From positions 248,001 to 300,933 of the forward strand of contig NW_026860036.1 of NCBI RefSeq assembly GCF_026571515.1: a DNA stretch of 52,933 nucleotides. The letters are read 5' to 3'. This document shows positions 13,301 through 51,100 of this stretch, one piece after another; position 1 is the stretch's first letter, and each line of letters starts with the position of its first letter. Source of the DNA: Ruditapes philippinarum. Taxonomy: Eukaryota. A program made the translations under genes and the position numbers. The notes below the pieces were generated by a model that worked only from the letters and a program-made list of their open reading frames with translations, was not told the origin of the DNA and searched no databases.

Positions 13301-16300
13301 TCTATCTATCTAGCCACCTACCTAGCTAGCTAGCTAGCTAGCTAGCTACCTACCTACCTACCTACCTACCTACCTTGTCTTGTCTTGTCTTGTCTGTATG
13401 TCCGTCCGTCCGTCCATCTATCTTTAAGCGTATGCATACTTTCAGTTTAAGATAGAAATTTTACTTATCGTACTTTTGAGGTCAAACTAACTACTAGTAT
13501 ATGCTAATGTTCATAGTATTTTTGATATCAAAACAAGTGTATGCTGACTGTAAGTTTTACATAGTAAATGCTTACTTAACTGATTTCTATGCTTACTGTT
13601 AATTTGATATGTAGATAACCGTAAAACAACAGTCCCTCCCAGATATTAACAATTCAATTCAATTCAAATGTTGTTGCATTTTTTCGGCAAACCTTTGCCT
13701 TTGGCAATACATACAAAACATACATAAATCACTAGAAATATGACTAACATTCAATACAAATATACAATGTTCACATAAAATGCAGAAACATATTAAATCT
13801 ACAATTCTTGCATTGTTTCTAAAACACTAGATCTTAATGCGAATGATTTATCTAGAAATTTACATAATTGCAATATTCTATTTTTGATCCTATCATGTTT
13901 TAGATAATGTCATCACATAATGCCATGTTAGTTATTTAATGTTGGAAAAGATACATGTTTAATTAAAGAGTTTCTCAGTTCTGAATATAAGGGACAACAT
14001 AATAAGAAGTGGTATTCTAATTCACCATTTTTATACTAGCATAATTTACATAATCAGTTATTTCTATCCGTTCTCATATATCTCCCTGTTTCTATTTTAA
14101 GGAATGAGAACATAATATATAACATGATAGTTGTTTACGTAAATTGTCATTCTTTACAATACAAAACTGTGTTTTATATTTATTATAGTAATCAAGCTTT
14201 GGCATAATATCTATACAATCGTACCATTGTTATAAATTGATCTCTTAATCTCTGCTTAAATTCCATTGGACGCGTTTAGCCAAACATTTATCATTCCCAT
14301 TAATGCATTGGTCTAAATATATATATGTTATATAGGCGCCTGCTGACGGTTAACGATTGTATTCTAAAATCGTAAAGCTCTTTCCTTACATAAAACAAAG
14401 GAAATTCACCTAGTTCTTCATAGACAGCAAAATTTGGGGTCTGTCTTTTGACACCTAAAACATATTTATAAAATCTTATCTGTAGTTTTACAAGGTTATA
14501 TATACCCCAAACCTCTGACCCATATAATAAGATTGGAGCTACCATTCTTTCAAACAAGTATAATTTTGTTATAACATCGAATTTAACTCTATCAAAAAGT
14601 GCGAGAAAATTTAGGTAAGTTCTTAGACCTTGATCTGAAAATGTTTTCACAGCTTCAACAAAACTACCTGTGTAAGAAAATTTCACTCCTAAATATGTAA
14701 AACCATCTACATTTTCAACAAATTGACCATTTATAAATATATCAAAATTATGGATTGACTTACGTTTTTCAAATTTTTGATAACATCTATCTTTAGACCA
14801 CATTTATATGAATATTCAAAATCATGATCAACTTGTGTCTGCAGGCTTGCAGGGTCAGTTTTAAACAACACAAAACAACACATCTGCAAAAGTAACAACT
14901 ACTTTTTATAAAATTAACAGTGATAAAAACCACGTGCCTAAGCCCTACTGTAATTTTGAGAGAGTAACAGCCTTGTGCTCAATGTAAAACTTAGATTTTA
15001 ATATCCGAATGCTTTTAAAAGATGGAAATGACCTTATATCATATTTAAATAACGGTATACCTATTGTTAGTTTGGGATCAAATAACCTTACGTTTAAAAT
15101 AAGTTTAAAATTCATTTTAAATTCTAAATTTTTTAACATAACACATTTAATTTGGATTTGATAAAGTAATCTTACTTTCACTTCATTATTTCCAGCAATG
15201 GATCGTGCGAACAGTACTTGAAAATCATGAATGCCGACAACAATACTGTGAATGATTGGAGCTGTTCTGAGAATACCGTTGATGTTGTCTCCGCTATCGT
15301 TCCTAATTACGTCATTATTTACTTCAGTAAGAACAATAAAGACGTAGGTGGGCGATTCTGGATAGGATTCCAACGTGAGTATTTAGTAAATTTCAATAAC
15401 CATAGCAAACAATCATTATATCGAATGAAAATACTGATGTTAATTAACTTTGTTTTGTTATTATGTAATGATAAAAGGCCATATTGAAAACATAGAGCAT
15501 TTTAGAATACGAAAGCAAGCAGTAAACCAGAAGCAATAATGTCTGCCTATCAATATGGGTATCAATCATGGGTTCGAGTCTAAGGATCATTCCCAGAACA
15601 GTATTTATGCCTTTTAACAAGACAAAATATCTGCTGGCAAACTTTTTTAGTTGAATTTTTATTTTGAAAACTTGAATACTTACACAGCGACAACTTCGTC
15701 GAACATCACTGTCAATTGTCCTCCAGAATATCCGACAATGTGTGAGAGAACGACTACTTCAACTTTATCGTCCACAACAACTACTATATCTAGCTCGAGC
15801 GAGTCTTTGAACTACTCAACTTCAACTAACAGTCCACCAGCAGTAATTTCTACATCTCAGACGATTACTACCGATTCAAACTATGGTAAATTGTANNNNN
15901 NNNNNNNNNNNNNNNNNNNNNNNNNNNNNNNNNNNNNNNNNNNNNNNNNNNNNNNNNNNNNNNNNNNNNNNNNNNNNNNNNNNNNNNNNNNNNNNNNNNN
16001 NNNNNNNNNNNNNNNNNNNNNNNNNNNNNNNNNNNNNNCTATCTGATTCGCAGCATCTATCGTGCAGCGGTTAGATAGATAAATAAATTATATAATAATG
16101 CCTGTTCATTTATGCGAGATATAATGCTCATATTTGTGTTTGTGCATTTAGAACAGAATGGTAGATTCTAATGTCTCATCTTTTAACTGCATATAACTAT
16201 ATTGGTAATAATTAATTTATTTCAGACTGGGTGCCAATAGTGATAGGTGTGTTTGCAGGATTAATTTTTATCGTGATAGTAATTCTTATAACTTTGTACT

Positions 16301-18030
16301 CCCGCAACTTCGGAGTTTGTCAACGGCGCAAACAAGTTAAGGTATTTTTACACATTTATACATATATGAATAGTTTTTATAATGTTTGCGTATTTGTAGC
16401 AGTAACCTACGCTTTCTTTGAAATTTACTTTGGAAACTTACATGTAATTCTATAGCGATATATTAAATGTTTATATTTTTGCTAATTTACAAATTGTCAT
16501 AAAATGCGAATTAGTGCTATGTTTTAATATATGTTGCAGAAAGAAATTATTAGAGGAGATGCAAATAATGGCGGAAATAAAAATAAACCTTTACAAACGG
16601 CTGAAATAATATCTGAAGTAGAAAATAAGAAAGCAGCAGACTCAAACCCAGTTCTATGGCCAAACAAAACTACAAAGACTAGACATAATCATGAAGCTAA
16701 ATCAACACGCACAGCACATGATAAAATAGACGAAAGTGTCGCGACAAATAAGAAAGTAAAGTCCAGTAAAAAAAGTAAAATTCAACCAGATGGAAAAAGA
16801 ATAGGAGAAAAGGTTGTCAGTACTAGTGGAAAAAAAGTAAAATCGTCACCAAGAAGTGCTACAACTAACTCCTCACAAAATATACTTGATGTTAATAACA
16901 AGAGAACACATCAACGGAATAATGACCATGTTATTCAAGATGGTGAAAATTGGAAAGGAGAAAATACAGTCACTGCCGATGAAAAGAAAGAAAATTTGCC
17001 AAGATTATCATCTAGAGCTACTATGGACTCGTCAAAGGGCAAAGCATTTCTACATAACAAGAAAACAGGGCAGTTGAATGAAACTCAGATTTTTAAAGGT
17101 GATTCTCATGATCAAAATCCGAACACTAACACCGAACCACTGAGTACAACAGTTGCATCCGAAATATTACCCGGGAATAGCCTATTAATAGTAAAAAATG
17201 ACATAAATATGATTCCAAAAGAAAAAAGGGCACCGGCATCCCCTATTCGAAATGAAACAGCTTTCAATGTAGGCGGATCTAGACCAGAGAGTGCAACTAA
17301 ATCTTACAGAAGGAAGAAAAGAAGTAGTTTACATAGAAATCATTTAAGATATAAGAACACTCCAACCACCAACCAAGAAAGATCGTATCCAAGACCTTAT
17401 CACGATTCATATAGCAGCGAATTTGAAAGTGTGGACGAGAATGATGACGATGATGACATCAAACCGTTAGGTCACGAAAACCGACATCTTCATAAAGTCA
17501 AAGATGCCTTTCTCGTGAGTAAAAACACTAAGGTTTCTCAAAGGTCTGGTCATAAGAAAAAGAGACGTAATAAGATTAGTCCGACACATTTGAGTTTAAA
17601 ACACCGACATCATGCTCAACTCAAGAGTAAACCATTCAGTTTGTTGGATACAGACATAAAAGTTCTGCTTGGTATTATTGACAATTATGATGAAAACAGG
17701 TACTCGACCATGGTAAACAATAGTCAAGGTTTAACAAGATCTGAAGCGATGAATGATTTATCTAGAAAAAGTCGAAGAAAAAGGTCAGTAAATGCAAATG
17801 GTTCTACAGACAAAAACAAAGAATTAGTCGAAAATGATGCGTACAATGATATTACCGATGTTGAAAACAAAGATGATAGTTTGCGAATCGTTAAACCTAC
17901 TACATGTAGAAGCCCACAAATGGCACAAACGGAAAGCTTAAAGACAACATTGGAAGCAGTTCTTAATTCGTCAAAACTAAATCTGAAAAGTAAAAAGAAA
18001 CAAAATAATACTCAAAAAGGTAAACATTAA
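10340..18030 (+). CDS. Gene A: type-I membrane protein, signal peptide + SUEL/rhamnose-binding-lectin-like domain + CUB-like domain + Ser/Thr stalk + TM + ~500-aa basic disordered cytoplasmic tail (about 879 aa)
   Basis: Exons 10340-10409 (MFKLVFLYWLVLVF...), 10767-11156 (Cys-rich, ends YMYINYNCI), 11644-11839 and 15196-15374 (VYIWSKDYP...CSIEI...CEQYLKI...RFWIGF), 15688-15885 (CPP...C + Thr-rich), 16226-16341 (TM WVPIVIGVFAGLIFIVIVILITLY) and 16540-18030. All GT-AG, phases 1,1,2,1,1,0, total 2640 nt in one open frame. Exon-by-exon homology with gene C. An extra exon inside an N gap cannot be excluded. Confidence 0.85.
12194..12779. other. assembly gap (N run)
   Basis: Run of n. Confidence 1.
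12780..13909. repeat. ~510-bp direct duplication (12780-13289 / 13395-13909) separated by a compound microsatellite (ATCT/AGCT/ACCT/CTTGT/GTCC)
   Basis: Two almost identical copies beginning tgtatgtccgtccgtccgtcc, differing at about 3 sites; directly abuts an N gap. Confidence 0.9.
13910..14920 (-). mobile_element. degenerate non-LTR retrotransposon (LINE, RTE-X-like) reverse-transcriptase C-terminal fragment in gene A intron 3
   Basis: ORF 14300-14803 has FTYLGVKF and LFERMVAPILLYGSEVWG, typical LINE RT thumb-region motifs. It is frameshifted and its boundaries are approximate. Confidence 0.8.
15896..16038. other. assembly gap (N run)
   Basis: Run of n. Confidence 1.
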
Positions 18031-21853: not shown

Positions 21854-24800
21854 ATGAGAAAGTCGCGTGACCGTTTAATTTTAGTTATCACCATATTTGC
21901 TATATCCAGATCAGGTAAGAATTGAAATCTTAAATATTTTTATTTCATCTCATATTTCCCCTTTCTTTTTAAATATCATTTTGATATAAAAGAAAAAATC
22001 TGAAATTAAAATGAAACTTTTTTATTGTATGACCCTTCATAACCATCTTTAGTTTTGTGTGATCCAAATTTCACGTTTTTGGCTGCAAAGCTGCAAGACA
22101 TTTATTTTGGAAAACTTGTTCCGGTTAGGTGGTTTCCTGCTTACATATGTTAGTGCATGATTGAACGGGAAACCAGCTGCAATCGTGCCAATCGCAACTT
22201 TTCGGCCCTTTCCGTCACTCTTCGGATTAATGATAATAGCCGATGTAGTTCCGATTGCAATCGTGACAATTCGGGCGAGTAATATTACCGAAATCTAAGC
22301 TATTTTAGTTACTTCGGTAATCCCAGTTTGTTTATATAAATAGGATTTCTATTTTTACTTGATTCCGTTTCAATTCTTTTTCAAGACGCAAAAGTTAGTT
22401 TCTTTTATAATTGTTTTTGTCTTTATTAGTTTTATACAATAGAGAATGGTTACTGTAGTTAGTAGTATTCCGTCTCCAATTTAAAGAGCGGTCCTGCTTA
22501 TCAAAAGATCGTGACCGAATCACGCAGAATATTAGTGCATGATCAAGTTATATTTAGATCTAGCGTCTTGGTAAAGTAATCTAAAAATAGCCCATGCATA
22601 TCATTAACCTTGCCACGTGCTGATCTCCATAGATATTTTAAGTGTAACATAGTTGATACATGCTTATTAATTGGTACCACGTAACGAAGTCTTTTAGTGC
22701 ATTTACTTGTCTCTAAAGCTGCTATAAATGAAATTAGCAACTGCCAAAACGAAAAAACCCTACATATCCCTTTAAAAGTGAAACTTTTTTTTCGAGAAAA
22801 AAAACTAAATAAACCCTTTATAATATACAAATACGTAATTAAAAAAATGTGATAATAAATTGAAACAAAAAAAAAAAAAACAAATTTAAAGGGAAGGGAT
22901 GATGGCACAACTGAGCAAGCCTTTCCTTTTTAAAGGAAACTTTATTTCCCCTCGAACTGTTTTGTTTCAATTGCTGATCTTTTTAATTTTTAGGAAACAA
23001 TTACATTATGTATAAACACAAAGCAATTAAAGTTTATTAGTGTAAGAAATTAAATGATTGATATAGTTCTGTAAGGTATTAAATGCAAAAAATCCGTTGT
23101 AGTATGTTATTAGATTTGATAGCAATCCGTCAAACAGTTGTTTTTATAAAATGCTTTTTAAAAATTTATTACAGCTACTTCCGCGTCGTCGACTGCTTCA
23201 ACGTTCTCATCGACTCAAAAATTAGACACAACAACAAAAAATGATGAGACGTATACCTCTTCCCAATCTACTGTTTCTTTTTCAACTGATATTCCAACAA
23301 CAACTAGTGGTATAGACACCACAGTTGAACCAACAAGTATGATATCATCTACTGAATCTGGTACAACCACGGGCGATTTATCAACGACAACTGCAGCATC
23401 TGATACATCAGTCGATGATCTAAGCACAACTACCACAGGTGATATTGACTTTACAACATCAGATGATCTTGAGCCGTCCACAACTGATTTAGAGACAACT
23501 TCAAGTGAACAAATAACAACGGAAACTTCTACACAATTTACAGATCTAACCACATCAGTCGCTGCCGAAACAACAACGACTTCTTTAATTTCATCTAGAG
23601 CATCTACAGGTATGTCAACAACAGTCGACCAGGATACTACCATAGGTGAATCGACTACAATTACAGACTCCCCCACAACATCAACACAACCAGATCTAAC
23701 AACGTCGTCGCTAGGGAAAGAAACAACTAGTATAGCTTCAGGTCAATTATGCCAAACAAGAGACGAGTTTGAGCAAGGTAATTAAACATGAAGATACCTA
23801 CCATTTAAGAAATTGTTGTTGTTGTTGTTGTTGTTGTAGATGATATTTTTGAACAGTAACTTATAAATCATAATAGCTTTTTTTTAGATCATAGATCCAA
23901 ATCTACATGCATATATTTGTTTTAATGTTTATAACTGACTATTTTTTGAAACCCTACTCTCAACTTAAGCTATAAATTATACGTAATAAGACTTGATTGT
24001 TTCTTCTGCCATTGAATAATTGTTTCTGTGTGTATTTTATTATCAGATGACGTCAGAAATTATGTCATTATTGCATTAAGCGTTGCTCTTGGTACTATGA
24101 GCATCTGTGTGATGATATGGTGTGTTATATCAAGATTGTTTGTGAATGTAAGTACTTACAAGCTATTTTAGAAATAATATCGGTCTCAGCGGTGTTTATC
24201 AGCTGACACCCGTGTGGAGTTTTGATGCATAGGAATCGACCACGAAGGCCGTTGGCTTCTGAGTGGTTAATATTGTCGCATTAAATCGACAAACCTATAT
24301 TAAATAGCCGATTAACACCGCTTAGTCCGATTTTTTTTTGATTTTATAATATGATAAAATAAGGGAGACCATAAATGTTTTGTTTTAAGCCGATATTTTT
24401 CCGTTGCCGATTTTGTTATTTAGGACTCCTCTTTCGCTAAGGTATAAAAAAATAAACAAAAGAAATACAAATAAGAAAAATATGTCACACTTTTTTTTTT
24501 TCATCAATGATTTTGTTTTGTTTTTCAACAATTCAAACTTCCGTGTCAAACTTGATTGTCTTGTGATTCGGTTTTACAACATTTTAAACTTAAGTGTCAA
24601 ACATCCATCACCCATTGCAGTTTAAGGTAACGCCATTCTGGCAATTTTAAGAATGAGTTGACTACTAAAAATGACGTCAATACGCTGATTAATATTGCCT
24701 AAGTATTTTCTCTAATAAATTATATCAACTGATATGGGTAAAAATGTAGCATTATTGCATGTGAAATGTCAATTTAGTATCATATTGAAAGAAAACAATT

Positions 24801-26352
24801 GTGAGCGGAAAAAATCAATTATTTGGTTATTATTTTTGCCTTCAAAGGATTTGTTTATCCATCTTAAGGGATGGAGGAAAAAAGAACAGCCGATTAATCT
24901 TGTAGTCCCTAACCAGTGTTTATTGGCAGCTAACCATGTGAATAGCGACGCAATCACGAAGCTTGTTAGAATTGTTTTTAACATTTATAATTAAACTTTT
25001 GAAAGTCTAACTAAAATGAAAAAAGATGTAAATTGGGAGTTATTTTGTGGAATAAGATATCGTGCATTTAACACGATAACTAATTAAAAATTTCAAAAGT
25101 ATGTAAGAAATTGGAGTTTAACTACACATTTTCTTGTATTGCTATATTTAAGGTGAAGAAAACTATGATATCTGCAGGCACACAAACAGATTTCTTTATT
25201 TCAAAGGAAATTTATGTTCGTCCTTTGCCTCCAATAGATACACACATGAAGAAGTCAAATCCCTTTATAAATATAGACAGGAATACATGTGAAGACAAAA
25301 AATATCCGATGGATGTTCGCGTTGATATAGATCCCGATAACCCCCCTTTCGATAATAAATTGGATATTTTTTCCGAATGTGAATGTAGAAAAGTTAAAAA
25401 AGACGAAAAAATTAAGGAATGCAGAGAATATGATGGGTTGCTTTCACAATTAGTAGCAGAACCGACCGAGAGGTCATGTATGTCGAACGAGGATATAAAA
25501 TCCACTGACACAGATCTTTTATCAGAAGACATGAACATACTGGATTCTGAAGAATTCTTTAATCTCATTTTCGTTAGTGAGTATCCAATAATGGAAAATC
25601 CAGACTCATTGGCTTCAATTACTGGACTTCCCCGATCAGTGTCTAATTCTGATTCAATTTCTTCGTTTGATAAAATAAAAGAAAGAAGAGATGTAGTACA
25701 CGACATTTCCGGAATAGACAATGAAAAGGATGAAGGATCTAAATCTAAGACAAATGTGATTGGAGCAAGTATGAAAAATAAAAAGCCATCGTTTCAAACT
25801 AACCATTGTTTAAATGATGAAGAACCGTTTGAAGAGACAATAAATTTAGATACTGACGAAACAAAGCAAACAATGCGTCACGTGACATTTGCAGAACCTA
25901 AAGAACAAATTTTGAATCACAGCTTAAACTGTCAAGAAGTCGATCAAGAAGATTGTGTAGTCACCTTGGTAAGTCCTAAATACAGTAGATTAGAAAACTC
26001 AGAGACAAACACTGTCGAAATAACTGATTCATCAAGCCCAGGAAAATTGAGTATCAGTAGGAAATGGAAAAAGGTTCACAAGAACAGAGAAATAAATACT
26101 GACGTCATAAAAACTTTACCATTGTCACAAATTCAAAAGAAATATCTGGTTACATATGGCATTATATCAAATGAATGTAGTACCAATTCTGACATTAAAA
26201 TGACGAAGTCGTTAAGAAAAATAATAGCAAGAAAAACACTAAAAATAAAAGCAAACTCAAAAAAGAAATGGTCTCTGCCAAAACCTGAACTCAAGTTTCA
26301 AAGTGAACCGTACAGTAGTTTGTATTCTCGACTGTCACATTTTGAAACTTGA
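21854..26352 (+). CDS. Gene B: type-I membrane mucin-like protein, signal peptide + ~200-aa Thr/Ser/Asp mucin domain + TM + ~400-aa cytoplasmic tail (about 654 aa)
   Basis: Exons 21854-21914 (MRKSRDRLILVITIFAISRS), 23175-23777 (Thr-rich), 24047-24147 (TM YVIIALSVALGTMSICVMIWCVI) and 25153-26352. GT-AG, phases 1,1,0, total 1965 nt in frame. Confidence 0.82.
24178..24331. repeat. inverted-repeat (fold-back) segment, probably part of a non-autonomous DNA transposon in gene B intron 3
   Basis: atcggtctcagcggtgtttatcagct ... agccgattaacaccgcttagtccgat are imperfect inverted repeats. Confidence 0.5.
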
Positions 26353-27565: not shown

Positions 27566-27912
27566 GAATTTGCTAAAAGTTTTGGTGAAGACAAAAACCG
27601 TTGGGTACACATGCTAAAAAGTAAAAAAAAAATATGAATATAAATTTTGAAGTTATGTTTCATTCACGGATTTATGTCAGGTGAAAGGCAGTATTTGATT
27701 TCCATAACAGTGAGTAAATGACTAGAAAAACTAAATACCACATGAACATCATCTATATTCAGTAAATAAGCCAAAGAATTTGTCATCTTTACAGCTAGTT
27801 AATTTGTGACTTGACAGCACCAGATTCGTTCAAGCACACAACATCTTCACACGAAACAACTAGCTAGCAGTAAACATTATTTTCAAAAAATAAAGACCAT
27901 AAACAAATAAAA

Positions 27913-28268
27913 AGTTTTACTAGTTTATTTTATATTATAATGTTATCTTAGAGCATCAAAAGTCTCCGGCAGTGAGTTATACTGAATAACAAATATTTGT
28001 TTGCATTAAATGTGTTTCATTAATGATTCCCTTAAACCAACTAGTTTTACTAGTTTATTTTATATTATAATGTTATCTTAGAGCATCAAAAGTCTCCGGC
28101 AGTGAGTTATACTGAATAACAAATATTTGTTTGCATTAAATGTGTTTCATTAATGATTCCCTTAAACCAACTAGTTTTACTAGTTTATTTTACATTATAA
28201 TGTTATCTTAGAGCATCAAAAGTCTCCGGCAGTGAGTTATACTGAATAACAAATATTTGTTTGCATTG
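27913..28268. repeat. 130-bp tandem repeat, about 2.7 near-identical copies
   Basis: agttttactagtttatt recurs at 27913, 28043 and 28173. Confidence 0.95.
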
Positions 28269-30669: not shown

Positions 30670-31066
30670 TAAATAGAGGATATCCAAGTTTCTATAAATA
30701 GATAAAGGATCTATTTTCATCGAGTGGTATGAAAATAAATATTTTACGAGTGGCAGTAACCAGGAGTGAAATATGATAATTTTCATACCTCAAGATGAAA
30801 ATATATCCTGTATTAATAGAAATTTGAAGTTTCTGTTTATTTTATACCTTTTTCTCGTTTTTAACCTCATGAATAGGCAATATTCACTTTTAATCTTGTT
30901 TATTGGCCGAATTTAGAGGAGAGTCGTCCGGCAACACACCAGTGAAAATATGGAAAATATATTTCACTGCAGTGAAAAATAAATTTTTACAGTGAAAATA
31001 CGGAAAATAACAAAACGCATTTTATTTCATAAAAAATTCTCAATATTTCATTTATAAGTATATAAT
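30670..31066. mobile_element. non-autonomous DNA element with internal inverted repeats; absent from the duplicate segment
   Basis: The paralogous region at about 47940-47960 joins the two flanks directly. A related fragment lies at about 41480-41580. Confidence 0.65.
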
Positions 31067-31158
31067 AAAACAATATACTTATGAATAAAATGACCCTATT
31101 TGTATATTCTGTTTATATGTAAAGTAATTCGAATAATACTGTTATGATATCATGTTTG

Positions 31159-34100
31159 TTAGCAATGTGAATCTTTTCGTTTCTTTACTCGTTTCCCCTT
31201 GGATTGACGTCTTATCATGTGTAGTAGCTTTTCCTCATTCTTTTCCTGAGTAAAGAAAGCACTTTCCATCACGCTACGAACTTTATAAACATGTTTAATC
31301 TCCTTGGCAACAGTTGGGCTAAATGGCATTACCTGAATTGGGCGAACTTCCCTACTATACGTATCCGGACTTTCAGTATCAGTATTATCGGTTTGATAAC
31401 TGTGTACAACCGTTTCCGGTTGAGACATTTCCGGTTCCGGTTTATATACTTCCTTTTCCGGTGTAAAAAAAAATCTTTTATTTGCCGGAATGTCTTTGAT
31501 TGAATCTACACTGGCTATATCTAGAGTATCAGGAGATATATTACGAATGTCACGTTCATCGTCACTTTTTGGAATCTTTTTCTTTTTCCTTGTCTTCCTT
31601 TTGTGTTTATGTTTGCTGATAATTACATTTTCCATTTGGATTGGAGACGCTTCATCTTCATCTACAAATGCTGGAATATTTCCATTAGCCACAGGCTTGA
31701 TAGGTGTTTTATCAGGGCCAATTGTGAATTGTTTAGCTTCCCCTTGTTTTTTATCGTCTCGATGGATAATATCCGTTTGACTGCTTGTAGTTTGAACATT
31801 TTTCTTTGTTTTGATATTTGCTTGACTTTTCTGATTTTTTGTCTTAATCATGTCTGTTTGACATTGTCCATTAGACTGTAATATTGCTTCTGTTGATACA
31901 CCTTTATCTTTGTGTTTCAATGGTGGTACTTCAGACATCATAAAATCAGTTAATCTGTCTGATTCCGTTAAGGTTACTTGGCAGCCAATCTCTGCCCTCG
32001 GAATACGTATTTCATTCATTTCAGAGTTGATGTTAGGTTCAGTCAGATCTTTTGTTTCCACAGTATGGTGTAGTTGTACCTGGCAAGCAAAATCTTTTAA
32101 AGTTGGACTAGTGGGCGGTTCTGGTACGGATACCATGACTGGCTGTTGCAGGGATGGTTTATTCTCCGCGGGAACCTGTAATGGGGTTAAAGCATACTTT
32201 TATTTCTCAAAGATATGTTCATTTCTGCTCATGGTTGTTGCTTTGTCTATTTCAATGACAAGGAATGACAACTCCATGAGTGTTTTTTTTCGTGTAATAC
32301 GAAATTTACTTCCCTTTTAGGTTAACCATTATTGTGAAAAACAATGCGATTGTGAATTTATTGTGTGTACATGAATAACAAAAACATTAAAGATTAAAAG
32401 ATCTACATTAAATAAATCAATACATGTGACTAGGAAGTAAAACAGTGGTTAATTTACGCTCATGCAGACGACATCGATTAGATAAAATTATGATCGTGGA
32501 ATGAGGAAGAATTATTTAAATTATTTATTGACCTCGATTAAATTTGTTCGTTAAAATTTGTAAGATGTCAGCAGTGGACTTTTTAAAAAGATAAATACAT
32601 ATGTACATTCAACATGCAATTTCAAATAACAACCCTTTATCCTTTTTTCATTGCTTTACCAAATAAATTACCTTTAATAGAAAGTAATTTGTAAATATGT
32701 AATGCTTTCTATTCAGAAACATTAAACGTACAATGGTTATTGATCGTATTGTCACCTTAGTGCATTAACGGATTAAGTCCTTTTAAATTCAATAGGAGTT
32801 AACCAGTTATTGTCCCAAGATAATTAAACATGTTAAATCTAAGAAGGATAATGTTTTGCTATTGAAAATGCTTAACTTTTTAATACATGTAAATAGAGCA
32901 GGTGCAGTGATCCAGTGTTAACAGTGATTGATTGACTACAATTCGTAGGTTGTGAGTTCAACCATCAGCTACTCAAACTAATTACAATATAGGTTACCAT
33001 GACGACTATATGTAAACGTGTATTTCACACAATACCCTCTGGAACCCTTTAATAATAATTCATATGTAGTATACTTTTTATCAAATGATATTACTGACAG
33101 GTAAAATATTTTAAGAAAAAGTGAGATCCAAGAGCTTATTTCTTATCATCTACATGTAGATGGTATATAAAATAAAACACTTTTTATTTTCTATTTACTT
33201 AGTTACGAATGGATTGTCTTATGACATACGATTTGGTACGATTTACCTTTTCTAAGTCATTGCTGCTTTTAATACGACATGTTCTGTATAGGCAACATGA
33301 TAATATCATAACAACAATCAACAGAATGGCCGACAACACTCCCAGAGCAATTACTACAGCCAAGTAGTCATCTGGAAAAAATACAACAACAAGAGATTTC
33401 ATTATGTTCATTGCCGGATAGTCATCTGTAACAAAAACACTTGTAGGGATGTTAATTGTGGAGTAGTGATCTGTGACAAAATAAAAAGATGACACGATGT
33501 TCATTGCCTAAAAGTCGTTTTGAATAAAAACAGATGCCAGATTGCCGGATAATCATCTATAACAAAAACACATGTACGGATGTTAATACCCGAGTAGTCA
33601 TCTGGCAACAGATCTCACAACAGTTATCTGGAACAAAAACAGATTTCGTAATGTTAATTTGAAAAAAAAACATGGCTGCAATTATGAAACTTTCTTTATT
33701 ACTGAAAAAAAAACTCTAAGTATATATTTAATGAAATGGTAAACTGTATTTGTCTCATTTACCGTTTGTGACAAAGTTATACGCAAGTGTTTAATATATA
33801 TTGCAAAAGAACTGGCAAAAATATGAATGATCTAAGCTATAATATCATTGCAAACATTATGATTCTGCTGTGTCTGCGGAGAAGCATGCGAGGAATTCCG
33901 CCCAAAGTAAGGAGGACAGTCGTCACATCAGCGTAGAGGTGACGGCAGAAATGAAATATTCAATAATAACAGAACATGTGGTTTGATAAATTTTATAAAA
34001 ATCAGTAAATCGATACCCTTTTCTTCAGAATTGTCCTCTGCTGTTGTTACATTGTGTGAATCTGTTGACGTTATAATAGTAGTTGTCATATTCTCAGTGG

Positions 34101-37100
34101 TTGTAGATGTGGTTACCGTGGTAATGTTCATTGTTGTACTGGTTGTCGTCTGCATGCAGTATTGTTGTGATGTAGGCGGACAGCTGACAGTTATGTTAGC
34201 ATTCTGATTGGCTATTAAGCAACAGCAACAAAAACAACAACTAAAAATGATTATCAAAAGGTTACGTAATTAATGTTCTAGGAATAGAACACATATTTAT
34301 TGATGTTATCTTATCTGATATAATCATAAAATTATCCTCTATTTTTTAACAAAGAATGGCGAATGCGCAAACAATTCTTTTGTCTGGGTTTCACGTCGCA
34401 TCAACACAGTATAGGTCATACGGCGACTTTCAGGCTTTACTGGCGGAAGAAGACCTCAAGTGTCGGCAGAAACAGGCATTTGAGTAGAACAACGGCGTAA
34501 CGAAAGCTATCTGGATAACCTTCTGACATGTAGAATCCGACGACACTTGCACGGCTCGAACCTACAACTACCTAAAACCCCTGTCACACTAGGGCGGCGT
34601 TCTCACGGCGTCCAATGAATTTTCAGAACGCCGAGGTGAGCGCAGTAAGATCGCAAACATCGCCGCAGCATCGCCGTAGCATCGTAGTGGTATCGCATAG
34701 AACGCCGACCGACGGCGCGCATTTTGAGCATGTTCAAAACAAACGCCGTCACTCGGCGTTCTAAAGTGAGCTCAGTGGGATCGCAGCAAGGACGCCGTAG
34801 CAACTCAGTAACATCTCCTACAACGCAACAGGAGCGCCGTGAAAGCGCAAAAGGAACGCCGAATGAACGCGGTGGTTATCCACGGCGCTTGTACGGAGTT
34901 TGTGCGGCGTCCTTACCGCGCTTATACTGCGTGTGCACGGCGCTTTTACAGAGCTTTACGATTTCAGCGCAGTGTGAATGCCGTAAGGGCGCCGTATAAG
35001 CGCCGTAAAAGCGCAGTGAAAGCGCAAAGAACGTCGTAGAAGCGCGATCTGAACGAAGACAATCGTCAATTAAAACGCCGTGGAAGCTCCGTAGCATCGC
35101 CATGATTGCCGTGGGGACGCCGTGAAGACTCCATGAAGTCTTCATGTCATCAAAAATATTAGATTTTTCATTGCGATCTCGCGGCGCTTTGTTAAATTTT
35201 ACAACGCCGTGCAAACGCAGTGAAAGCGCAGTCTGGTGTGACAGGGCCTTAACCAACGACCTTTCATACGGACGCCCCTTTTATACCCAAAATAAATAGT
35301 TAAAACGCTACTTGAAATTGTATGTAACAAACAAATAGAAATAGAGAAATACAGAATCACTAAAGAAAGCCCAACACGACAAAATTGAAAATGTTGCAGG
35401 CTCGGTTTGATTGAGCCTGTTCATGGACGGTACTGGAAAGTGCAAGTTATCGTCCACGCCCCCTAGCACCGGCTTAAGCAGAATTCAACATTTAACATGA
35501 CAATGGTGAAATTTTGAATTTAGAAACATCCGCAGATGTGTTCATAAAAGTCTATGTAAAAAAAATCTGGAAACAAAGTGATCCCTCGGAAGCATTAATC
35601 ACAACAATATTACAAGAGAATTGCAGACTCGGTTTGATTGAGTCTGTACATGAGGGGTAATGAATACGTGCAACATCCCTCACGCCCCCGAGCACCGGCT
35701 TGAGCGGTACTCAATTCTCAACACTTAATAGTGCTGGCATCAATGATCCTGAAGGACCAGAAAAATATAACAACTCTGAAGTGAAGTACAGGGCAACTTT
35801 TTACAGCTGCCACACAGCACTTAACACCTGCTGTTGTGAAGTATAAAAATCTTGAAATAAAGTGATCCCTCTGAATCATTAAACACAACAAAATTACAAG
35901 AGAATTGCAGACTCAGTTTGATTGAGTCTGTACATGAGGGATAATGAATACGTGAAACACCCCTCACGCCCCCTAGCACCGGCTTGAGCGGTACTCAATT
36001 CTCAATACTTAACAGTGCTGGCATCAATGATCCCAAAGGACCAGAAAAATATAACAACCAGAAAAATATAACAACAATAAAATACTTAAACAGATATAGC
36101 TTTTACCCCTTAACTTGGTTGTTTACAAAAAATAATATTAAATTAAAAAACCCTTTGCATTTAAGATTAAAAATATAATAAACGGAAACCTTTAAACCCC
36201 ATCCAGACCTTGCCGTCGCTATCATTACGGGTATTTTCTAGGTTAAGCAGTATATAAGTAACCTGTGCTTGGAAGTTTTCTATATCTTGTTTGTTATCAC
36301 TACATGTCCACTCATAAAGGATAGTACTATTTTCACCACTTCCAATCCGAACAGTTTGATTGCACGCCCCATTTCTGAAAGAAGTTATTTGTCGTATAAG
36401 CTCTGATTTTGATGGTCAAATTCGAGAGAACGAACGCATACAAACATGTTATTGTTATGATATGCAGTTTTATTAACTTACGAATCGGTATTTGTTTTGA
36501 GTTTGAAGACACATAAAAATTGTAAAGATCACTTTTTCACTTTTTAGCCTGCTCGTTCCTGAACGAATTCAGGGACACCTGATGTCTTTCATCATTGTCG
36601 CCGAATGACTTTAACAATTTCGGTGTGACTCAAAGTTCAACAAAACAAACAAACAAACAAAATTAAAAAAAAAGAATTATGATTTTTATTGATTAAGCAG
36701 GACCACAGACCATAGTTTCAGTATATTTAGTATAAACGGAAGCATGCTGAAGCCACCCACCATATGAAATCTAGCTTATTTAAAGTGGTAAATGTCACAA
36801 GGTGAGAAAAATGTGCAGCCTGACCGAGACTCGAACCCGGGACCTCGGAATACCGTACCGCGGCTCTGCCGACTGAGCTATCCGGCCGCTTACACATCCT
36901 CTCCCCCTATATAGTGAACAGTTCTGAACCGTGACATACTCCCCTGCTATATTGAAATTTGTCCTCGAAATTCACAGAGTTACAGAGCAATGTGAATTAA
37001 ACTCTGAGCTATATTCAGTCACGGCCCCACGTTGGGCGCCAAATGTCACAAGGTGAGAAAAATGTGCAGCCTGACCGGGACTCGAACCCGGGACCCTCGG

Positions 37101-40100
37101 AATACCGTTCCGCGGCTCTACCGACTGAGCTATCCGGCCGATTACACATCTTCTCCCCTAAATTGTGAACAGTTCTGAACCGTGACATAAAGAACATGTA
37201 TATCATTTCCTTCAGAATTATAGTTTCGATATTACCCGTTTCCCGTTAATATGCTGTACATTTTATAGATATCAATATAAGCATCACAGTTGTCTATCTC
37301 CACGGAACAGTTGCAGCTTGGGTCAGACGGACTGATGGACGAAACCTCAAAATCTTTGTTCCAAATGTAGACTGTAGTGTTCTCTCTTGTTATTGTAGAT
37401 GTCGTGGCGGAACACAACTCTAACATTTTATCGTCTGCAAGTTTTATGCAAAAGGAAGACAAAATAAGAAATTTACATTGATCTATGAATACAATAAATA
37501 TCATTATATAATCACAGGAACATATTTCAAAAGCATCAATTTCCAAAATTTTTTCTTTCCGCACTAGATTTCAATGAAATCATATATCCATGACAGAAGA
37601 TCTCTCCCGAAAAACGACATAGTACCGAGTGAGAAAGCAAAACGGTCGGGCTCTCAGACGGCCACGAACAGCCCGTACACCGGGGATACTCAGTGCGAAT
37701 CGCAAGTTCTTCATGTTAGGGATGCTGGGTGGATGGCACACTTTGCCATTTCTTCGGAGAAAAAAACAGTTCCATGCACACTCAGGGGTTAGACCCTAAC
37801 TCCACCTAACAAGGCCCTTATCAACTCTAAGTAACTGTTAACATTGTAACACGAATGTAGGTAGCATCAGTGTCAATGTTAAAAATGTATTTCAATTCAA
37901 TTTCCATCTAAATAGTGCTTTACAATTAAGTTTCATTAAAATACTGAATTAAGATTTGGTTGTAAATGTTGTTTTTAGTTCGTGTGAAAAAAACAACAAC
38001 TAAGTTTATGATCGACAGATTACAAACTTGTATGTTACCGAGAGTTGACCAAGGTGGATTAAGTAGGGGTCAGGGTCTGACCCAATATTGTGTGTTGTCC
38101 AAAAATACATTAACAACGCAAGTGCTGTGAAAGAAGTATCTTCCAATGTTAATTTAAGTTTGATCAATTGTTCTTAATTTGTTCCGTCACTAGAATGTAG
38201 TGATTGAAGTAAATATAATTCGTATGGAAAACAGAACACGTATGACTATATTCACAAGCACATGCCAAATATGCGTCTTGATTTATCAAAAACAGTGTTG
38301 TTGATGAGATGTTTTACTCTAAAGCTATTACAGCCAATCAGAAATAAGAGGGCCAGACATCTATAGTACATTTTAAAGGTGCATAAATCAAATTAAACTA
38401 TTTATCCTTAGTTTCCTATCATTCACAGATTCTATCCATGCGATCAGTGCAGTCTGGACATGGTCTCTACTCTACCATATCCAATCAGTACTTATTACAT
38501 ATATGATGTTTCCCCTTAAAACAATAAAAGGTTTTGTCCAATTTTAATTGAAAGAAATTTTGTATGCCAAGGGTTTAGGAAACTTGTTTTCCTAAAACGA
38601 GTAGGAATTGATAGATCCCTACTCTGACTTTCCATTTGAATAGCAATAGATTTAACCACAAACATGAACATGTGCTCTTTTGTTAACAAATATGTTGTGG
38701 TGAAATTATTATTGCATCCACTAATCTGATAAGGGATTAATGCATGTATTACGGAGATTAAAAATCTTTGGTTGTAAGTACTGTCAATTTATGTTTAAAA
38801 TACTTGTCACGAGATAATTTAAACGTATGAAAAATATCGTTATATAATCTTACCCTCTATGCAGTAGTAATCAATGAACATGTAACGACTTAAAGTAGTA
38901 AGATTTCCTGTACAACTCGCGTCAGTATTTTGATTCTGTACTCCCAAGTAACAATTCTGTCGTCCGTTACAGCCTTCATGATAAGTTAAAGTTTCGAAAT
39001 AAAATGGGAACAGACAGTCATTTGCTTGGTCATATGTACAGCAAACAGAAAAGTTGTGCATATCGTCGTAGTATCTAGGACAACCTGTAGATTGTAATTT
39101 GGAACCCACTGTTACATGTTTGATGGCAACGACATGACCATTACCACAGGAAGCATTGACGAAGACTTTATCAGGATCTGACGACGTTCCGGAACATGCC
39201 GATGGTGACTGTATGATTTGAAGATTCGATGGCTGGCAGGTCACTGTAAATAAACGTAGTTATATCAAAACATGATAAAAAAGAAACAGATTCTGTTGTC
39301 AATAATATGCGTGCACGCACACTGTAAACTGTTAGTCCCTTTAATACAATATGTACTGTGCATGTAATTATACTTTGATTTAATTTGTCATCTTATTGTA
39401 CAGTTCTTCTCAATCTTGCTACTATTATTTCATGCCTATAGATGCTTATGTTTCCTGTAATTTGTAAACCGACTGAAAATAAAGTTTCTTGTATCTTGTA
39501 TCTTGTACCCATGCATTATTTTATCGACTTATAGTTTTAAAGTGACTTCTGTTTCAAATGGTAACATTGCTAAAACAGCTTAGATTCTTTCTGATAATGC
39601 ATTAAAGGCATTGTACAATTTGTTAAGTCTTTTTACAAGAATACATGTCGATATAATAACGAAGCTAAAACTGTTTGATTCCCTAGCTGTATCAATTTTG
39701 CTTCATTCACTAGATGTATGAGGAATATATTCTCCCAAAGAGGTTGATAAGATTAAAATAAATTTTGCAAAACCATATTAGTTGTGAAATCACAGACTCA
39801 AAATAATGATGTTTTAGGTGAATTCGGGAGATTCCCCTTATTTGCGGGGTTGGAGGTCCATATGGATCGCAAAATTGAGCATCAGTAAAAAGGATATGTG
39901 AATTTCCGCTCATCTAGATGTGAAGTTTAACACCAGATGTGAATGTTTAATAAGGTCAATCGTATGGTAGGTTTTCAACTTTTAAGCAGTTTTATAAACT
40001 TCAAACTTTTTTAAACGAAAATCGAAATGTGATTCTACCCTCCTGACTCTCCTCTATATTACCCATTTTTGCATTGGATTATTATGCAGTCTTCATCGAG

Positions 40101-42428
40101 ATATTCTTTTCGTTGAGTGTTTTATACTGTAACAGTACGGGTACGTTTCAGTCATTATCGAAATGTGCCAGGAACGTTATGGTTTTAACCGTAATGTTTC
40201 TCGTAATGGTTAATCATTACGCCTTGAACATTAATTAATCATATCCTGATGATCAACGATAAAACATCAAATTTGAGTATAAACGTAGTATATAAAATGA
40301 AGAAAAACAGAACCCCTAAAGAAAGCCCAACACAACAAAATTGTTAAATGTTGCACGCTCGGTTTGATTGAGCATGTTCATGGAAGGTAATGGAAAAGTG
40401 CTAGATACCGTCCACGTCCCCCAAGCTCCGGCTTAAGCAGAATTCAACATTTTAACACAAAATGGTGAAATTTGAATTTAGAAACATACGCTGATGTGTC
40501 CATACGGTGGAACCTTCAATGTGACACAGAAGTGTCATGTCATGAGAAGCGGCGAATGGTCCCCCAGTAAAATAATGCGTGTGCCCTAAACGAGAAAACA
40601 ATGGGCGGAGCTAAATAAAATGGAATTTTGAAAGGGGATCTGAGGTTATGAAGCCTGCACATCTTTTGACAAGACGTCAAAAGACAAATTTAAAAAGCAC
40701 TACCTATTGGGCTAACCACGGCCGGACGCTACCTGTTGAGCTAATGCATATCGCCGACTTCGTTACAAATAATTGGAAAAAACGTTGCTACCTCATAAAA
40801 GGTATTTCTACTCGAATATTTGCGAATAATATTTTACTTGCTTCCTTTTAGTATTGACATGACTCTAGTACTCTATCTCAATAGCTTAGCGCAGATTCGA
40901 CGTTATTTTTGCAAAATTTTGAAACTTGGCACGGCCTCGTGAACGCCGTAAACAGTTACCCTCGAGCTAGATATTCCCATCTTTACCGGCAGCCGGTGTA
41001 ACATCCTTAATTGTAATCCGCGCAAGACAAGTCGCGTGTTTTAAATGACGTCATTCCCGCGCGCCTTTTATGAATGATTTTCGTTCTTAGAATGACGTCC
41101 TTTTGACGTTATGAATGAAGTTGTAAATTCAAACGCTACTATCAATGGAAATCTTAGTTCTTTCCGAAATGATTTTTCTGCGTAGTATTCAAGATAAAGA
41201 ATCAAACACCGGCTGCCGTAATAGACCGGAATATCTAGCTCTCGCGTAACTGTTTACATACGGTAGTATCGCGGCCCTCAGCCGAGTTTCAGCTGAACAT
41301 TTACCCGAGAGTTAGAAATTTCGGCAGCCGGTGTTTGATACCAAAAGATAAAAAAAAAACTTGAATTTTCTGTTTATTATATACATTTTTCTCTTTTTAT
41401 AATTTGCAATTTGAGAGACTTTCCTATAAATTGTGTGTACTGGCAGAATTTAGAAGAAAGTAGTCAGGCAAGACATCTGTGAAAATACGGAAAGTATGTT
41501 TCACTGAAGTGAAAAATAAATTTTACAGTGAAAGTACGGAAAATAAAATACACATTTAATTTCATCAATATTTTCTCAATATAATGATTTTACATCATTA
41601 TTATATTTATGTACGCCGAACACGGCGATGTGCATCGTCAATAAAAAAAATGAATTATAAATTTTTCAACTGATATTAATAAAACCTGTGGCATTAGTGT
41701 ATTTGAGATGTTATTATAGCATCATATGGAAAGAAAACATAATAAGAATGGAAAATATCAATAGAATGCGTTGTTATTGCTTCCTAAAAGGCTTTGTTAA
41801 CTATCTTATCGCAAGGACAAATAAAACAGTTGCATATACATGTAGCAGTCCCTAACCAGTATTTATTTGCACTTGAAAATCACGAGGGTTTTTAGAATTT
41901 ATTATAATAATACTTGTGTCAGGACGGTTGTAAGGCTAGAAAGAATGTTTTAAACCAGTCTACCTCAAATGTTTAGCCGTTTCTTATAATGCCAAAAATA
42001 TCTGTGGACAACAATTAAAGTTTTTGGGCTTTTTATATTGTCTATTTAAATCAGCTTTACAATAAAACACTGGCAAATTTTTGAAAATGATCATCGACTG
42101 GTTTCTCAACTTACGATCGGGTTGTTCGAATTACGGAATATTTCTTTAACACCAATCTATGATGTTTCATGGTAAACTTCAAGAACATCACCAATATTAG
42201 TCAAAGTTTCGTATCATTATGAGCTTTATAATCCCTCGTGTAATTTTTTATTTTGGGGGTCTTTTAGATCACATTAAGCCACTACTCTCTCGTATTATTA
42301 AACTCTTATTGATATCAATATTTTATAATTTAATAATTTCATATCAACAATTAAACAACAAACTTACCTTGTGCTATAAAAGCGCCAATTGAAACACATA
42401 TTATCGCTAGAAAGTTTAATTTCGTCAT
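31159..42428 (-). CDS. Gene C: type-I membrane protein, signal peptide + SUEL-like lectin domain + CUB-like domain + Thr stalk + TM + tail with multiple LC8-type motifs (about 723 aa); paralogue of gene A
   Basis: Exons 42428-42368 ([20 protein letters not shown]), 39243-38854 (…CNGRQNC…[10 protein letters not shown]), 37434-37236, 36374-36190 (…GACNQTVRI…EWTCS…KVWMGFK), 34211-34017, 33371-33247 ([27 protein letters not shown]) and 32175-31159. GT-AG, phases 1,1,2,1,1,0 (identical to gene A), total 2172 nt in frame. Confidence 0.87.
33360..33660 (-). repeat. about 7 degenerate ~45-bp tandem copies of the splice-acceptor/TM-exon start
   Basis: Recurring minus-strand motif TTTTGTTNCAG|ATGACTAY...AATGAACAT. 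Confidence 0.75.
34377..35279 (-). mobile_element. tRNA-derived SINE interrupted by a MITE
   Basis: The body (caggctttactggcggaagaaga, ggctcgaacc) matches the SINE at 27350. The probable head remnant (ccaacgacctt...cggacgcccc) resumes after 35252. Confidence 0.6.
34576..35249. mobile_element. PIF/Harbinger-type MITE (674 bp)
   Basis: 14-bp TIRs AACCCCTGTCACAC / GTGTGACAGGGCCT (12/14 match) flanked by a TAA target duplication. GC-rich interior with many ACGCCG motifs. Confidence 0.8.
35389..36003. repeat. three copies (35389-35493, 35616-35719, 35900-36003) of a ~104-nt multi-hairpin element; candidate structured RNA
   Basis: Closing stem plus internal hairpins with compensatory substitutions between copies; a fourth copy lies at 40342-40457. 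Confidence 0.7.
36793..37187 (-). mobile_element. complete TRIM (miniature LTR retrotransposon) with a tRNA-like sequence in each LTR (Helenus-type)
   Basis: Two 144-bp LTRs (36793-36936, 37044-37187) bounded by TGTCAC...GTGACA; 4-bp TSD TAAA; PBS TGGCGCCCAACGTGGGGC (tRNA-Lys, 37041-37024); PPT GCAGGGGAGTA; A-box and B-box in each LTR. Confidence 0.93.
40342..40457. repeat. fourth copy of the ~104-nt structured element, in gene C intron 1
   Basis: Homologous to 35389-35493 including flanks (about 40300-40505 vs 35345-35545). Confidence 0.8.
40950..41340. mobile_element. fold-back element with ~45-bp inverted repeats (probable non-autonomous DNA transposon)
   Basis: acagttac...gagctagatattcc...cggcagccggtgt and its inverse acaccggctgccg...ggaatatctagctc...gtaactgt, with a third partial copy at about 41300-41340. 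Confidence 0.5.
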
Positions 42429-48086: not shown

Positions 48087-48123
<37 letters not shown>

Positions 48124-51100
48124 GATTGACGTCTTATCATATGTAGCAGCTTTTCCTCATTCTTTTCTTGAGTAAAGAAAGCACTAGCCATCACGCTACG
48201 GACTTTATAAACATGTTTAATCTCCTTCCCAACCGTTGGGCTAAATGGCCTTACATGAATTGGGCGAACTTCCTTACTATACGTATCCGGACTTTCATTA
48301 TCAGTATTATCGTTTTGATAATTGTCTGCAACCGTTTCTGGTTGAGACATTTCCGGTTCCGGTTTATTTACTTCCTTTTCCGGTGTAAACAAAAATCTTC
48401 TAATTGCAGGAGAGTCTTTGATTGTATCTACACTGGTTATATCTAGAGTATCAGGAGATATATTACGAATGTCACGTACATCGTCACTTTTTGGAATCTT
48501 TTTCTTTTTCCTTGTCTTCCTTTTGTGCTTATGTTTGCTGATAATTTCATTTTCCAATTTGATTGCAGCCTCTTCATCTTCATCTACAAATGCTTGAATA
48601 TTTCCATTAGCCACAGGCTTGATTGGTGTTTTGTCAGGGACAATTGTGGATTGTTTAACTTCTTCTTGTTTTGTATCTTCTCGATGGATAGTATCAGTCT
48701 GACTGCTTGTAGTTTGAACATTTTTCTTTGTTTTGATATTTGCTTGACTCTTCTGACATTTTGTCTTAATCATGTCTGTTTGACATTGTTCATTATACTT
48801 TATAATTGCTTCAGTTGATACACCTTTATCTTTATTCTTTAATGGTGGTACTTCAGTTTGAGTTGACTTTTCTTCAGACATCATTAAATCAGTTAATATG
48901 TCTGATTCCGTTAAGGTTACTTGGCAGCCTATCTCAGCCCTCGAAATACGAATTTCGTTTATTTCAGAATTGACGTTAGGTTCAGTCAGATCTTTTGTTT
49001 CCATAGCAGGGTGTAGTTGTACCTGGCACGCAAAGTCTTTGAAAGTTGGACGAGCGGGCAGTTCTGGTACGGATACCATGACTGGCTGTTGCAGGGATGG
49101 TTTATTCTCCGCGGGAACCTATAATGGGGTTAAAGCACACTTTTATTTCTCAAAAAACAACAACAAATTTATATTCCTTTCTACTTATGGTTGTTGCTCT
49201 GTTTACAAAACAAGGATTGACAACTCCATGTGTGATATTTTTCGTGTAATACAAACTTTACTTCCCTTTTAGATTAACCAGTATTGTAAAAAGCATTGCT
49301 GCGTGTAGATTTGATAAAATAAAGAATAACATAAACATTAAAGATTAATAGATATAGATTAAAGAAATCAATACTTGTGACTAGGAAGTAAAGCAGTGGC
49401 TAATGAACGCTCACGCAGACGACATCGATTAAATAAAATTATGATCGTGGAATGAGGAAGAATACTTTAAATTATTTATGGACTCCGATTAAATTTGTTC
49501 GATTAAATTTAGATGGAATTTAAAAAATATATATGTATGTGCATTCAACATGCAGTTTCAAATTACAACCCTTTCTCCTTATTTTCATTGCTTAACCATT
49601 TAAATTACCTTTAATAGAAAGTAAATTGTAAATATGTAATGTTTTTTATTCAGAAACATTAAACGGTACAATGGTAATTGATCGTATTGTCACCTTAGTG
49701 CATTAACGGATTAAGTCATTTTAAATTCAATAGGAGTAAGCCAGTTATATTGCCTTAAAATTATTAAACAGAACAGAACAGAACATCGTTTTATTTAGAC
49801 TTGTACATAGTACATCGTCATGCATATAGATAAATAAAACAATTATCACGTCACGTGATCATGGTAACACAAAGTACAATGTGATACTTAGAATATATAA
49901 TAGAATGTACAGTGTTATGAGTAATAAGTAAATATTTTCTCAATCATAGCAGTAATAGAAATTCTACTGGCAACCTCACAGGATATTGTATACCATATTT
50001 TACCCAGTGAGTCTAACCATCCCACTGAAAGTAAAACTCCCTCCCGATAAAGGCGAAGGATAGATGTTAACCAGCAGCAAAACTAAATACTTATTGAGCA
50101 GTTTAATTCTTTCTAGATAGAGAACAGTATCATTAAAAGTTATACATGTTAACACACACATATCATATGATAATGTATCAAATAAGAGAAAATACCTTTA
50201 TTATTTAAGAACAATGCATGATTACACAAACAAACATGATGTTATAATATATGAGAATTGTAAAAAAATATTTTCCAAGAGGATGTTAAAAAATCAAATA
50301 TTTAAGAGAGTATTTCTTATTGCCAAACTTTCTTTAATGTATCTTGCTAAATTCATCAATAAAAGCTAGTTTGAAGTTTGCAATAACTGAATAAATTTGA
50401 ACATCGATGGTCTAACATAAAAATATTTTTTTATATATGTCTTACGAATATTATTATAACAAGGACAAACCAGAACAAAATGATATTCATCTTCGATATC
50501 AAGGGTATTACAGCACTGACAATATCTCTCGTTTCGTGGTAATCTATGTCTACTATATCTACCAGTTTGTATTCTGAGAGAATGGGCTGATAGTCTTATT
50601 TTGGTAATATACATTCTTAAACTACGTGGTAAAAGGTCGAGGTAAATTTCATACGATAAATTAGTTTTGCAATTTTTATATAGATCTAAAACATTATTAT
50701 TTTCAATATTACCATGCCAATCTTGTAAATAATTATCAATAAGTCTTTGTTTAAATATTCTAGGAAATAATTTACCATCAACATTATCACTATTTATAAA
50801 ACAATCAGCAAAGCCAAATGTATACAATAATCGTTTAACATTTGAGACCCAGTTATTATATCCATGTTCACAATCAATAACACTTTGTTCATAAACTTTT
50901 TTCATAATTATATTATCAGTTTGGATTGTTTTACACCAAAACTTGATTACTTTAACAAAACGAGCAATATATAATGGCCATCTTCCTAATTAAACACGTT
51001 AAATTTCAAGAAGGAAATCGTTTTTCTATTTAAATTGCTTAAAGGGTATAAATCTACATCATATGAAATTTTTTTTTTTAAATTTATCAACAGTAAAATT

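Follow-up and report, generated by a model that had tools for sequence, protein, structure and literature searches.

Whether a single-pass membrane protein can carry a tandem array of docking sites for LC8 (DYNLL) in its cytoplasmic tail is the question raised by a 52,933-nucleotide stretch of the genome of the bivalve Ruditapes philippinarum (contig NW_026860036.1, positions 248,001 to 300,933), referred to here as the window. A sequence-only reading of the window had proposed that two of its genes, C and D, encode lectin-like receptors whose tails may act as LC8-driven dimerisation scaffolds. LC8 dimers hold two client strands in parallel, the anchor being a Gln at position 0 with small uncharged neighbours, and many anchor-bearing peptides, even with TQT, do not bind LC8 (PMC6607443). 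The reading favoured here, at a probability of roughly 0.6, is that the tail of gene C contains five conserved Gln-anchored motifs and a doubtful sixth, likely binding several LC8 dimers cooperatively and zipping two tails into a parallel ladder. Judged from its sequence, the product is a probable LC8 client, and it is best read as a bivalve protein of SUEL and CUB folds with weak, cooperative sites similar to those of KANK1, the array being limited to few subfamilies.

Gene C lies on the minus strand (42428 to 31159). The model comprises seven exons separated by GT-AG introns, has no internal stop and encodes 723 aa in the order signal peptide, two Cys-rich domains, Thr stalk, one transmembrane (TM) helix and a tail of 350 residues. 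The signal peptide is encoded by exon 1 (42368..42428), in agreement with the N-terminus of paralogue P0004, and a domain of predicted SUEL/RBL fold lacking rhamnose-binding motifs by exon 2 (38854..39243; Pfam, paralogue model). Exons 3 (37236..37434; P0004 model against Kremen1) and 4 (36190..36374; P0004 structure) would encode the first and second halves of a CUB-fold domain, exon 5 (34017..34211; Pfam run) the Thr-rich stalk and exon 6 (33247..33371; P0004 model) the TM helix and the start of the tail. Exon 7 (31159..32175) encodes the remaining 338 aa, predicted from the P0004 model to be disordered save for a C-terminal helix. The tail is 100% identical to RefSeq XP_060606347 (P0015) of R. 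philippinarum, which has the same junction between the TM and tail exons, begins within the preceding intron and lacks the ectodomain. The whole architecture recurs in a full-length sequence from Ruditapes, either a paralogue or a haplotype (P0001/P0004; tail 85% identical), and in the Mercenaria orthologue P0002, all of these, as well as XP_060606347, being gene predictions. The placement of the array in a cytoplasmic tail is borne out by its position in the last exon, downstream of the predicted TM helix, and by the junction shared with RefSeq.

Four of the 24 listed RNA runs were mapped. Two had zero depth across 31432-32577, no exon joint occurs among the 15 joints listed of about 640, and no expression was seen. 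The other two runs (X21 and X22, labelled RNA-Seq) show low even depth, GATC chimeric joints and opposite-strand joints, and resemble chromatin-capture DNA more than RNA.

Just upstream of the TM exon (33370-33600, minus strand), its acceptor and first codons are repeated as several degenerate copies, among which the short RefSeq model starts. Read-through of the TM-exon donor would yield a tail-less form with a stop after 15 further codons, in gene C as in gene D. The annotated tail of P0005 (Mercenaria LOC128556550), a 90%-identical Mercenaria paralogue, has 12 residues; tail-less forms may exist, or P0005 may be mis-annotated. The introns of gene C contain high-copy repeats and duplicated stretches resembling tRNAs or SINEs, where read coverage is very deep (36790-37190, 35335-36058, 40292-40660).

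The ectodomain was examined on an AlphaFold2 model of P0004 built from 60 of 116 relatives and first hits, in which residues 31-298 are predicted with confidence. A CUB fold is indicated for residues 153-281, which align with Kremen1 (Z 12.8, rmsd 2.1 over 111 residues); 20 of the best 21 rows of the structure search are proteins with CUB domains (Z 9.6-12.8), and Pfam gave a CUB match in 3 of 60 members. Residues 30-149 match the SUEL/RBL fold with its conserved cysteines (latrophilin-3 lectin domain, Z 7.6, rmsd 4.2, 91 aligned), with Z values to latrophilin-3, CSL3 and SUL-I of 7.1-7.6 over about 90 residues, middling as all values below 8 are. This fold agrees with a Pfam SUEL match of gene C exon 2 that is below the cut-off (E 0.0036) and with profile matches, including one of the SUEL-fold region to ADGRL2 (E 3.6e-05). 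Rhamnose-binding domains are marked by YGR and DPCxGTxKY and bind sugar through a Glu and a Lys (PMC3269628). In the profile alignment to ADGRL2 these sugar-binding residues are replaced by Tyr and Asn, respectively, and YGR or DPC motifs occur in 0 of 60 aligned family members; for these reasons identity as a rhamnose-binding lectin was rejected. What survives of the proposed lectin-like receptor is its architecture, a predicted SUEL fold and a predicted CUB fold, so that the ectodomain is lectin-like in fold only. Latrophilin and EVA-1/C21orf63 also present an N-terminal SUEL/RBL fold on a membrane protein (PMC3269628), whereas the gene C product, besides lacking YGR, DPC and the sugar-binding Glu and Lys, continues with a CUB fold, a Thr stalk and one TM helix and is not a GPCR. 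Foldseek searches with the whole model returned only E values of 1e-4 or worse, and no solved relative was found with the SUEL exon alone. Matches to TMEM154, RIFIN and mucin were rejected as TM or low-complexity matches below the cut-off.

The peptides reported for the gene C tail are present in one minus-strand frame (31771-32097), starting at 32097, 31998, 31911, 31872, 31839 and 31794. When aligned with orthologues they correspond to six motifs, all on the minus strand: M1 (KDFACQVQ, 32074..32097), in which CQ is kept in all three lineages; M2 (AEIGCQVT, 31972..31995), with an invariant GCQV nearest to the GIQV class; M3 (KDKGVSTE, 31888..31911), the weakest, without Gln and with S, L or V at position 0; M4 (SNGQCQTD, 31852..31875), with an invariant QTD; M5 (KNQKSQAN, 31816..31839), in which K..K.Q.N is invariant; and M6 (QTTSSQTD, 31771..31794), with an invariant S.QT. 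A Gln at 0, uncharged mid-size residues at -1 and +1 and the lack of internal Pro are common to M1, M2, M4 and M6; M5 has an atypical Ala at +1 in gene C, and M3 fails the Gln-anchor rule. KDKGVST, listed among the array motifs, has no conserved anchor and is doubtful. NVQT, between M5 and M6, was dropped as a site because its Gln is not conserved.

The gene C array consists of Gln-anchored triads and has no canonical TQT. Strict patterns found nothing in the gene C exon (TQT 0, G[IV]QV 0, and 0 for [KR].TQT, which we take as an ELM-like LC8 pattern), and the tail exon of gene D contains one TQT (P=0.02 under the ELM-like pattern). Enrichment was assessed with 10,000 shuffles of the 338-aa tail exon that keep its composition, using loose patterns set after the motifs had been seen. 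The triad [TSVICM]Q[TV] occurs 6 times in the gene C exon against 1.04 expected (P=0.0001), and a pattern with the flank rules of PMC6607443 occurs 4 times against 0.45 (P=0.0008). Counts in the tails of C, D, Mercenaria and P0115 are 6, 6, 6 and 8, with 1.04, 0.98, 1.30 and 1.12 expected. In a control set of 40 tails from family members not in the C clade, 15 sites occur against 11.4 expected, near enough to expectation to indicate that the pattern is not loose; viral contigs scanned with an LC8 pattern contained none. These figures bear on the idea that the triads arose by chance in a Gln/Thr/Ser-rich disordered tail and were kept by relatedness, or that exon 7 and the TM helix do not belong to one translated product. 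Such an origin would fit patterns chosen once the sequence was seen, the duplicate nature of C and D and the lack of visible expression in the four mapped runs, but it is judged very improbable, given that composition-keeping shuffles still yield P ≤0.001, that the control tails show so little excess and that the annotated Ruditapes and Mercenaria models join TM and tail.

The motifs were picked before any orthologue was seen, and their conservation was examined in an alignment of the gene C tail with those of Mercenaria (40% identical) and orthologue P0115 (30% identical), that is, in three independent lineages only. Residues identical to Mercenaria amount to 31/48 in the motif 8-mers and 13/71 in the linkers; the corresponding values for P0115 are 25/48 and 10/71, and those for identity in all three lineages 21/48 and 4/71. 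Gap columns number 2/48 in motifs and 31/83 in linkers. The motif-versus-flank comparison proposed earlier is thus answered in favour of the motifs, with a smaller excess in the ungapped M3-M6 block: 18/31 vs 4/15 for Mercenaria (P=0.045), 17/31 vs 2/15 for P0115 (P=0.007) and 13/31 vs 2/15 for the three lineages (P=0.05). The anchor Gln is invariant in 5 of 5 motifs, compared with 1 of 5 for the other Gln of the region. Changes at -1 (C/S/V) and +1 (T/V/A) are small and uncharged across lineages, as needed by the buried LC8 pockets (PMC6607443).

Spacing is conserved at the distal end. From M1 to M6 the intervals are 34/28/12/12/15 in gene C, 41/33/12/12/15 in Mercenaria and 16/26/12/12/15 in P0115; the last four motifs keep 12/12/15 in the three lineages, with linkers of 4, 4 and 7 residues, while M1-M2 varies (34/41/16). 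Short fixed linkers are thus combined with three or more sites, M4-M6 alone giving three. With these data a simpler arrangement can be weighed, in which LC8 binding is confined to between one and three sites (M2, M1, M6 and the TQT site in D), forming a dimer clamp of the L-MAG/GKAP type or a link for dynein transport, and the rest are decayed copies. The lack of Gln in M3, the atypical flanks of M5, the single gene C motif that passes flank rules with D/E/P at +2, a TQT site lost or never present in C and the existence of single-site membrane clients of LC8 all speak for it. It is nevertheless considered rather unlikely, since M4, M5 and M6 keep both Gln and exact spacing in three lineages and since low-scoring KANK1 sites that fail as peptides bind strongly together (PMC12803091).

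A Lys/Arg-rich basic patch follows the array (31576..31614, minus strand), is partly kept in the aligned orthologues and resembles a nuclear or lipid-binding signal. The predicted C-terminal helix (31159-31311) also occurs in P0115 and P0121. Either of them could mediate self-association in concert with LC8.

Disorder of the tail is predicted from the P0004 model, in which pLDDT is <50 over residues 413-682, with no secondary structure, and a predicted helix follows at 685-734; the array, downstream of the TM helix, falls within this predicted disordered cytoplasmic region, and a Pfam search of the tails found no domain. Complex prediction used four LC8 copies and two copies of tail residues 22-140, with a substitute LC8 taken from a different organism (metagenome locus L118) and identical to PDB 1rhw; the LC8 groove is strictly conserved across 58 eukaryotes (PMC6607443). 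The complex scored 0.48 against 0.18 for the best control, a value in the weak range and for disordered chains, which are outside the calibration; unrelated proteins replacing LC8 scored 0.01 (one control). The mark was reached by 51/78 solved and 2/108 mismatched pairs, and scores of ≤0.60 include only 5/78 solved complexes but all 4 passing mismatches (of 180). The runs share at least 42% of contacts, with partner pLDDT of at least 34, and the pass may reflect the LC8-peptide complexes that are already solved. As the check with a modelled complex proposed earlier, the prediction gives weak support to docking.

A further reading of the conserved block assigns it another function: a different strand-adding partner, self-association, or lipid modification, redox chemistry or metal binding by its Cys residues. 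M1 and M2 share an invariant Cys at -1, the LC8 complex score is weak, and tail residues 141-199, which do not contain the array, are also fairly conserved (25/59 identical to Mercenaria). However, Cys is replaced by Ser or Val at M4-M6 while Gln-Thr is retained, the block has no predicted fold and non-LC8 proteins scored only the 0.01 of the single control, so that this function is thought improbable.

Membrane clients of LC8 include L-MAG, which we take to belong to the Siglec family. L-MAG, a glycan-binding protein, resembles the gene C product in being single-pass, with a disordered tail and a non-canonical site, and its 2:2 complex with DYNLL1 has been proposed to bring about receptor dimerisation and a change in avidity for the ligand; it differs in having one site and an Ig ectodomain instead of an array and a predicted SUEL-fold plus CUB-fold ectodomain (PMC7072810). 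Given this precedent, the earlier remark that LC8-driven dimerisation is unusual for a lectin-like receptor applies only to the multivalent array. Kir4.1, also a membrane protein, carries a conserved LC8 motif in a cytoplasmic segment that is disordered, but is an ion channel with one TQT site per chain (PMC11999606).

Among soluble clients, the L2 linker of KANK1 shares with the gene C tail, as predicted here, many weak non-canonical sites, short linkers and a long disordered region near the membrane. Its sites, too weak as peptides, form a 14:2 complex through linkers of 3-4 residues, and its predicted anchors include IGC and TST; KANK1 is, in contrast, a soluble cortical adaptor with 7 measured and at least 15 predicted sites, compared with 5-7 predicted sites on a TM helix in gene C (PMC12803091). 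GKAP, nNOS and gephyrin (GIQV-type) and SAO-1 (CQT) have G-x-Q-V/CQT anchors resembling M1, M2 and M4, and are soluble, unlike gene C; the CQV anchor has 0 occurrences in the available part of PMC12057147 and none was found among the GIQV/CQT-type clients compared (parts of PMC12797016 and PMC12057147). Nup159, ASCIZ and Chica also contain tandem LC8 sites, in which linker length governs rigidity and homogeneity, but they are nuclear-pore, nuclear or spindle proteins with mostly TQT anchors (PMC10046861, PMC12797016). It is proposed, by analogy, that the gene C array works like those of KANK1 and Nup159 and sits like the L-MAG site. The literature search, covering mainly open-access papers, returned no multi-site single-pass client of LC8, and subscription papers or client-list supplements (LC8Hub, PMC12797016 Table S1) could hold a precedent; it gave nothing on this locus, and LC8 combined with mollusc gave no paper on this protein.

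In the cooperative ladder favoured here, each LC8 site would be weak alone, as known LC8 clients suggest, and two tails held close in the membrane would supply bivalency and gain avidity. The distal motifs M4-M6, perhaps with M3, would line up LC8 dimers as a stiff, KANK1-like segment, and M1 and M2, on variable linkers nearer the membrane, would act as flexible clamps. The outcome would be a stabilised receptor dimer in which the basic patch and the C-terminal helix are held in parallel and the paired ectodomains gain avidity for a ligand, probably not rhamnose. LC8 arrays have been described for soluble scaffolds, and the membrane clients compared, L-MAG and Kir4.1, have one site in the sources consulted; if a single-pass receptor does carry a conserved multi-site array, this would mean that LC8 can build a cooperative ladder under the membrane and in this way control receptor pairing. 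The array also opens a first experimental route into a bivalve receptor family that lacks annotation, in which natural variants (C versus D, other species) could show how cooperativity depends on linker length and on weak CQV/CQT/SQT anchors.

The family members with names are bivalves and one snail. Among the 44 relatives with a TM helix and a tail of at least 80 residues, including Ruditapes P0001, P0015 and P0008, three or more Gln-anchored sites occur in 7 tails and none in 32; related tails with arrays of their own are found in Mactra (P0006), Mya (P0010) and Dreissena (P0007). In a tree built from 34 ectodomains, namely those of the 60 rows with scored tails and at least 170 residues, array-bearing Ruditapes, Mercenaria and Mactra fall into one supported clade (99/94) and array-bearing Dreissena and Mya into a second (100/99). 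The array label changes 3 times on this tree, a number as low in 1 of 500 shuffles, and a single origin of the arrays is possible. With a wider pattern, post hoc in that it was set after the sequences were viewed, Mactra shows CQT sites spaced 14/14 and Dreissena shows Asn-anchored sites spaced 12/12/12, which suggests sequence turnover under a kept register. As a tentative and rather speculative extension, several subfamilies of an undescribed mollusc SUEL + CUB receptor family may have separately built LC8 ladders of about 12-residue register on different anchors (venerid CQT/SQT 12/12/15, Mactra CQT 14/14, Dreissena Asn 12/12/12), each resembling a membrane-anchored KANK1-like rod. In that case LC8 occupancy would switch receptor dimerisation and adhesion from the inside out, and gaining or losing individual sites, among them the TQT block in which C and D differ, would tune this switch.

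The segment 43323-51996 is a decayed tandem copy of 16987-33439, which makes gene D a duplicate of C. The tail exon of D (48087..49118, minus strand; 87.6% nucleotide identity with C) matches RefSeq model P0003, and its TM exon lies at 51800..51924 (minus strand, ends approximate). Both genes carry motifs, as had been claimed, four of the six gene C peptides recurring letter-for-letter in D and the other two as variants; being tandem duplicates they are one duplicated gene and not independent, and counting them as two observations was rejected. The canonical EEKSTQTE reported for D is present (48852..48875, starting at 48875 on the minus strand) on a 21-nt block that also occurs in P0001/P0004 and P0125, is changed in P0126 and is missing in C. 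The block (31932 in C; 48855-48875 in D) is bounded by a short direct repeat, which suggests a microhomology deletion in C.

Gene B (21854..26352, plus strand) has four exons encoding 654 aa with signal peptide, Ser/Thr stalk, TM helix and tail. It contains the reported ISAGTQTD (25168..25191, plus strand) as its sole motif, borderline at P=0.04 to 0.36 depending on the pattern, and no SUEL or CUB exon was found in it. Gene A (10340..18030, plus strand; RefSeq model P0008) is a paralogue whose ectodomain is the same and whose 500-aa tail has 0 motifs under all seven patterns.

The duplicated segment holds a broken fragment of the gene A tail (43323-44299), non-coding and B-tail remnants, and gene D. 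The ORFs 50366-50989, in the last intron of gene D, and 14300-14803 read, in our assumption, like ends of non-LTR retroelement proteins, and gave no Pfam match. The last exon of gene D contains a long run of A (48087-48125), which shifts the final codons relative to C and may be an assembly error. At the start of the window (1-3501) lies a GC-rich 170-bp tandem satellite of about 20 copies with 98-99% identity.
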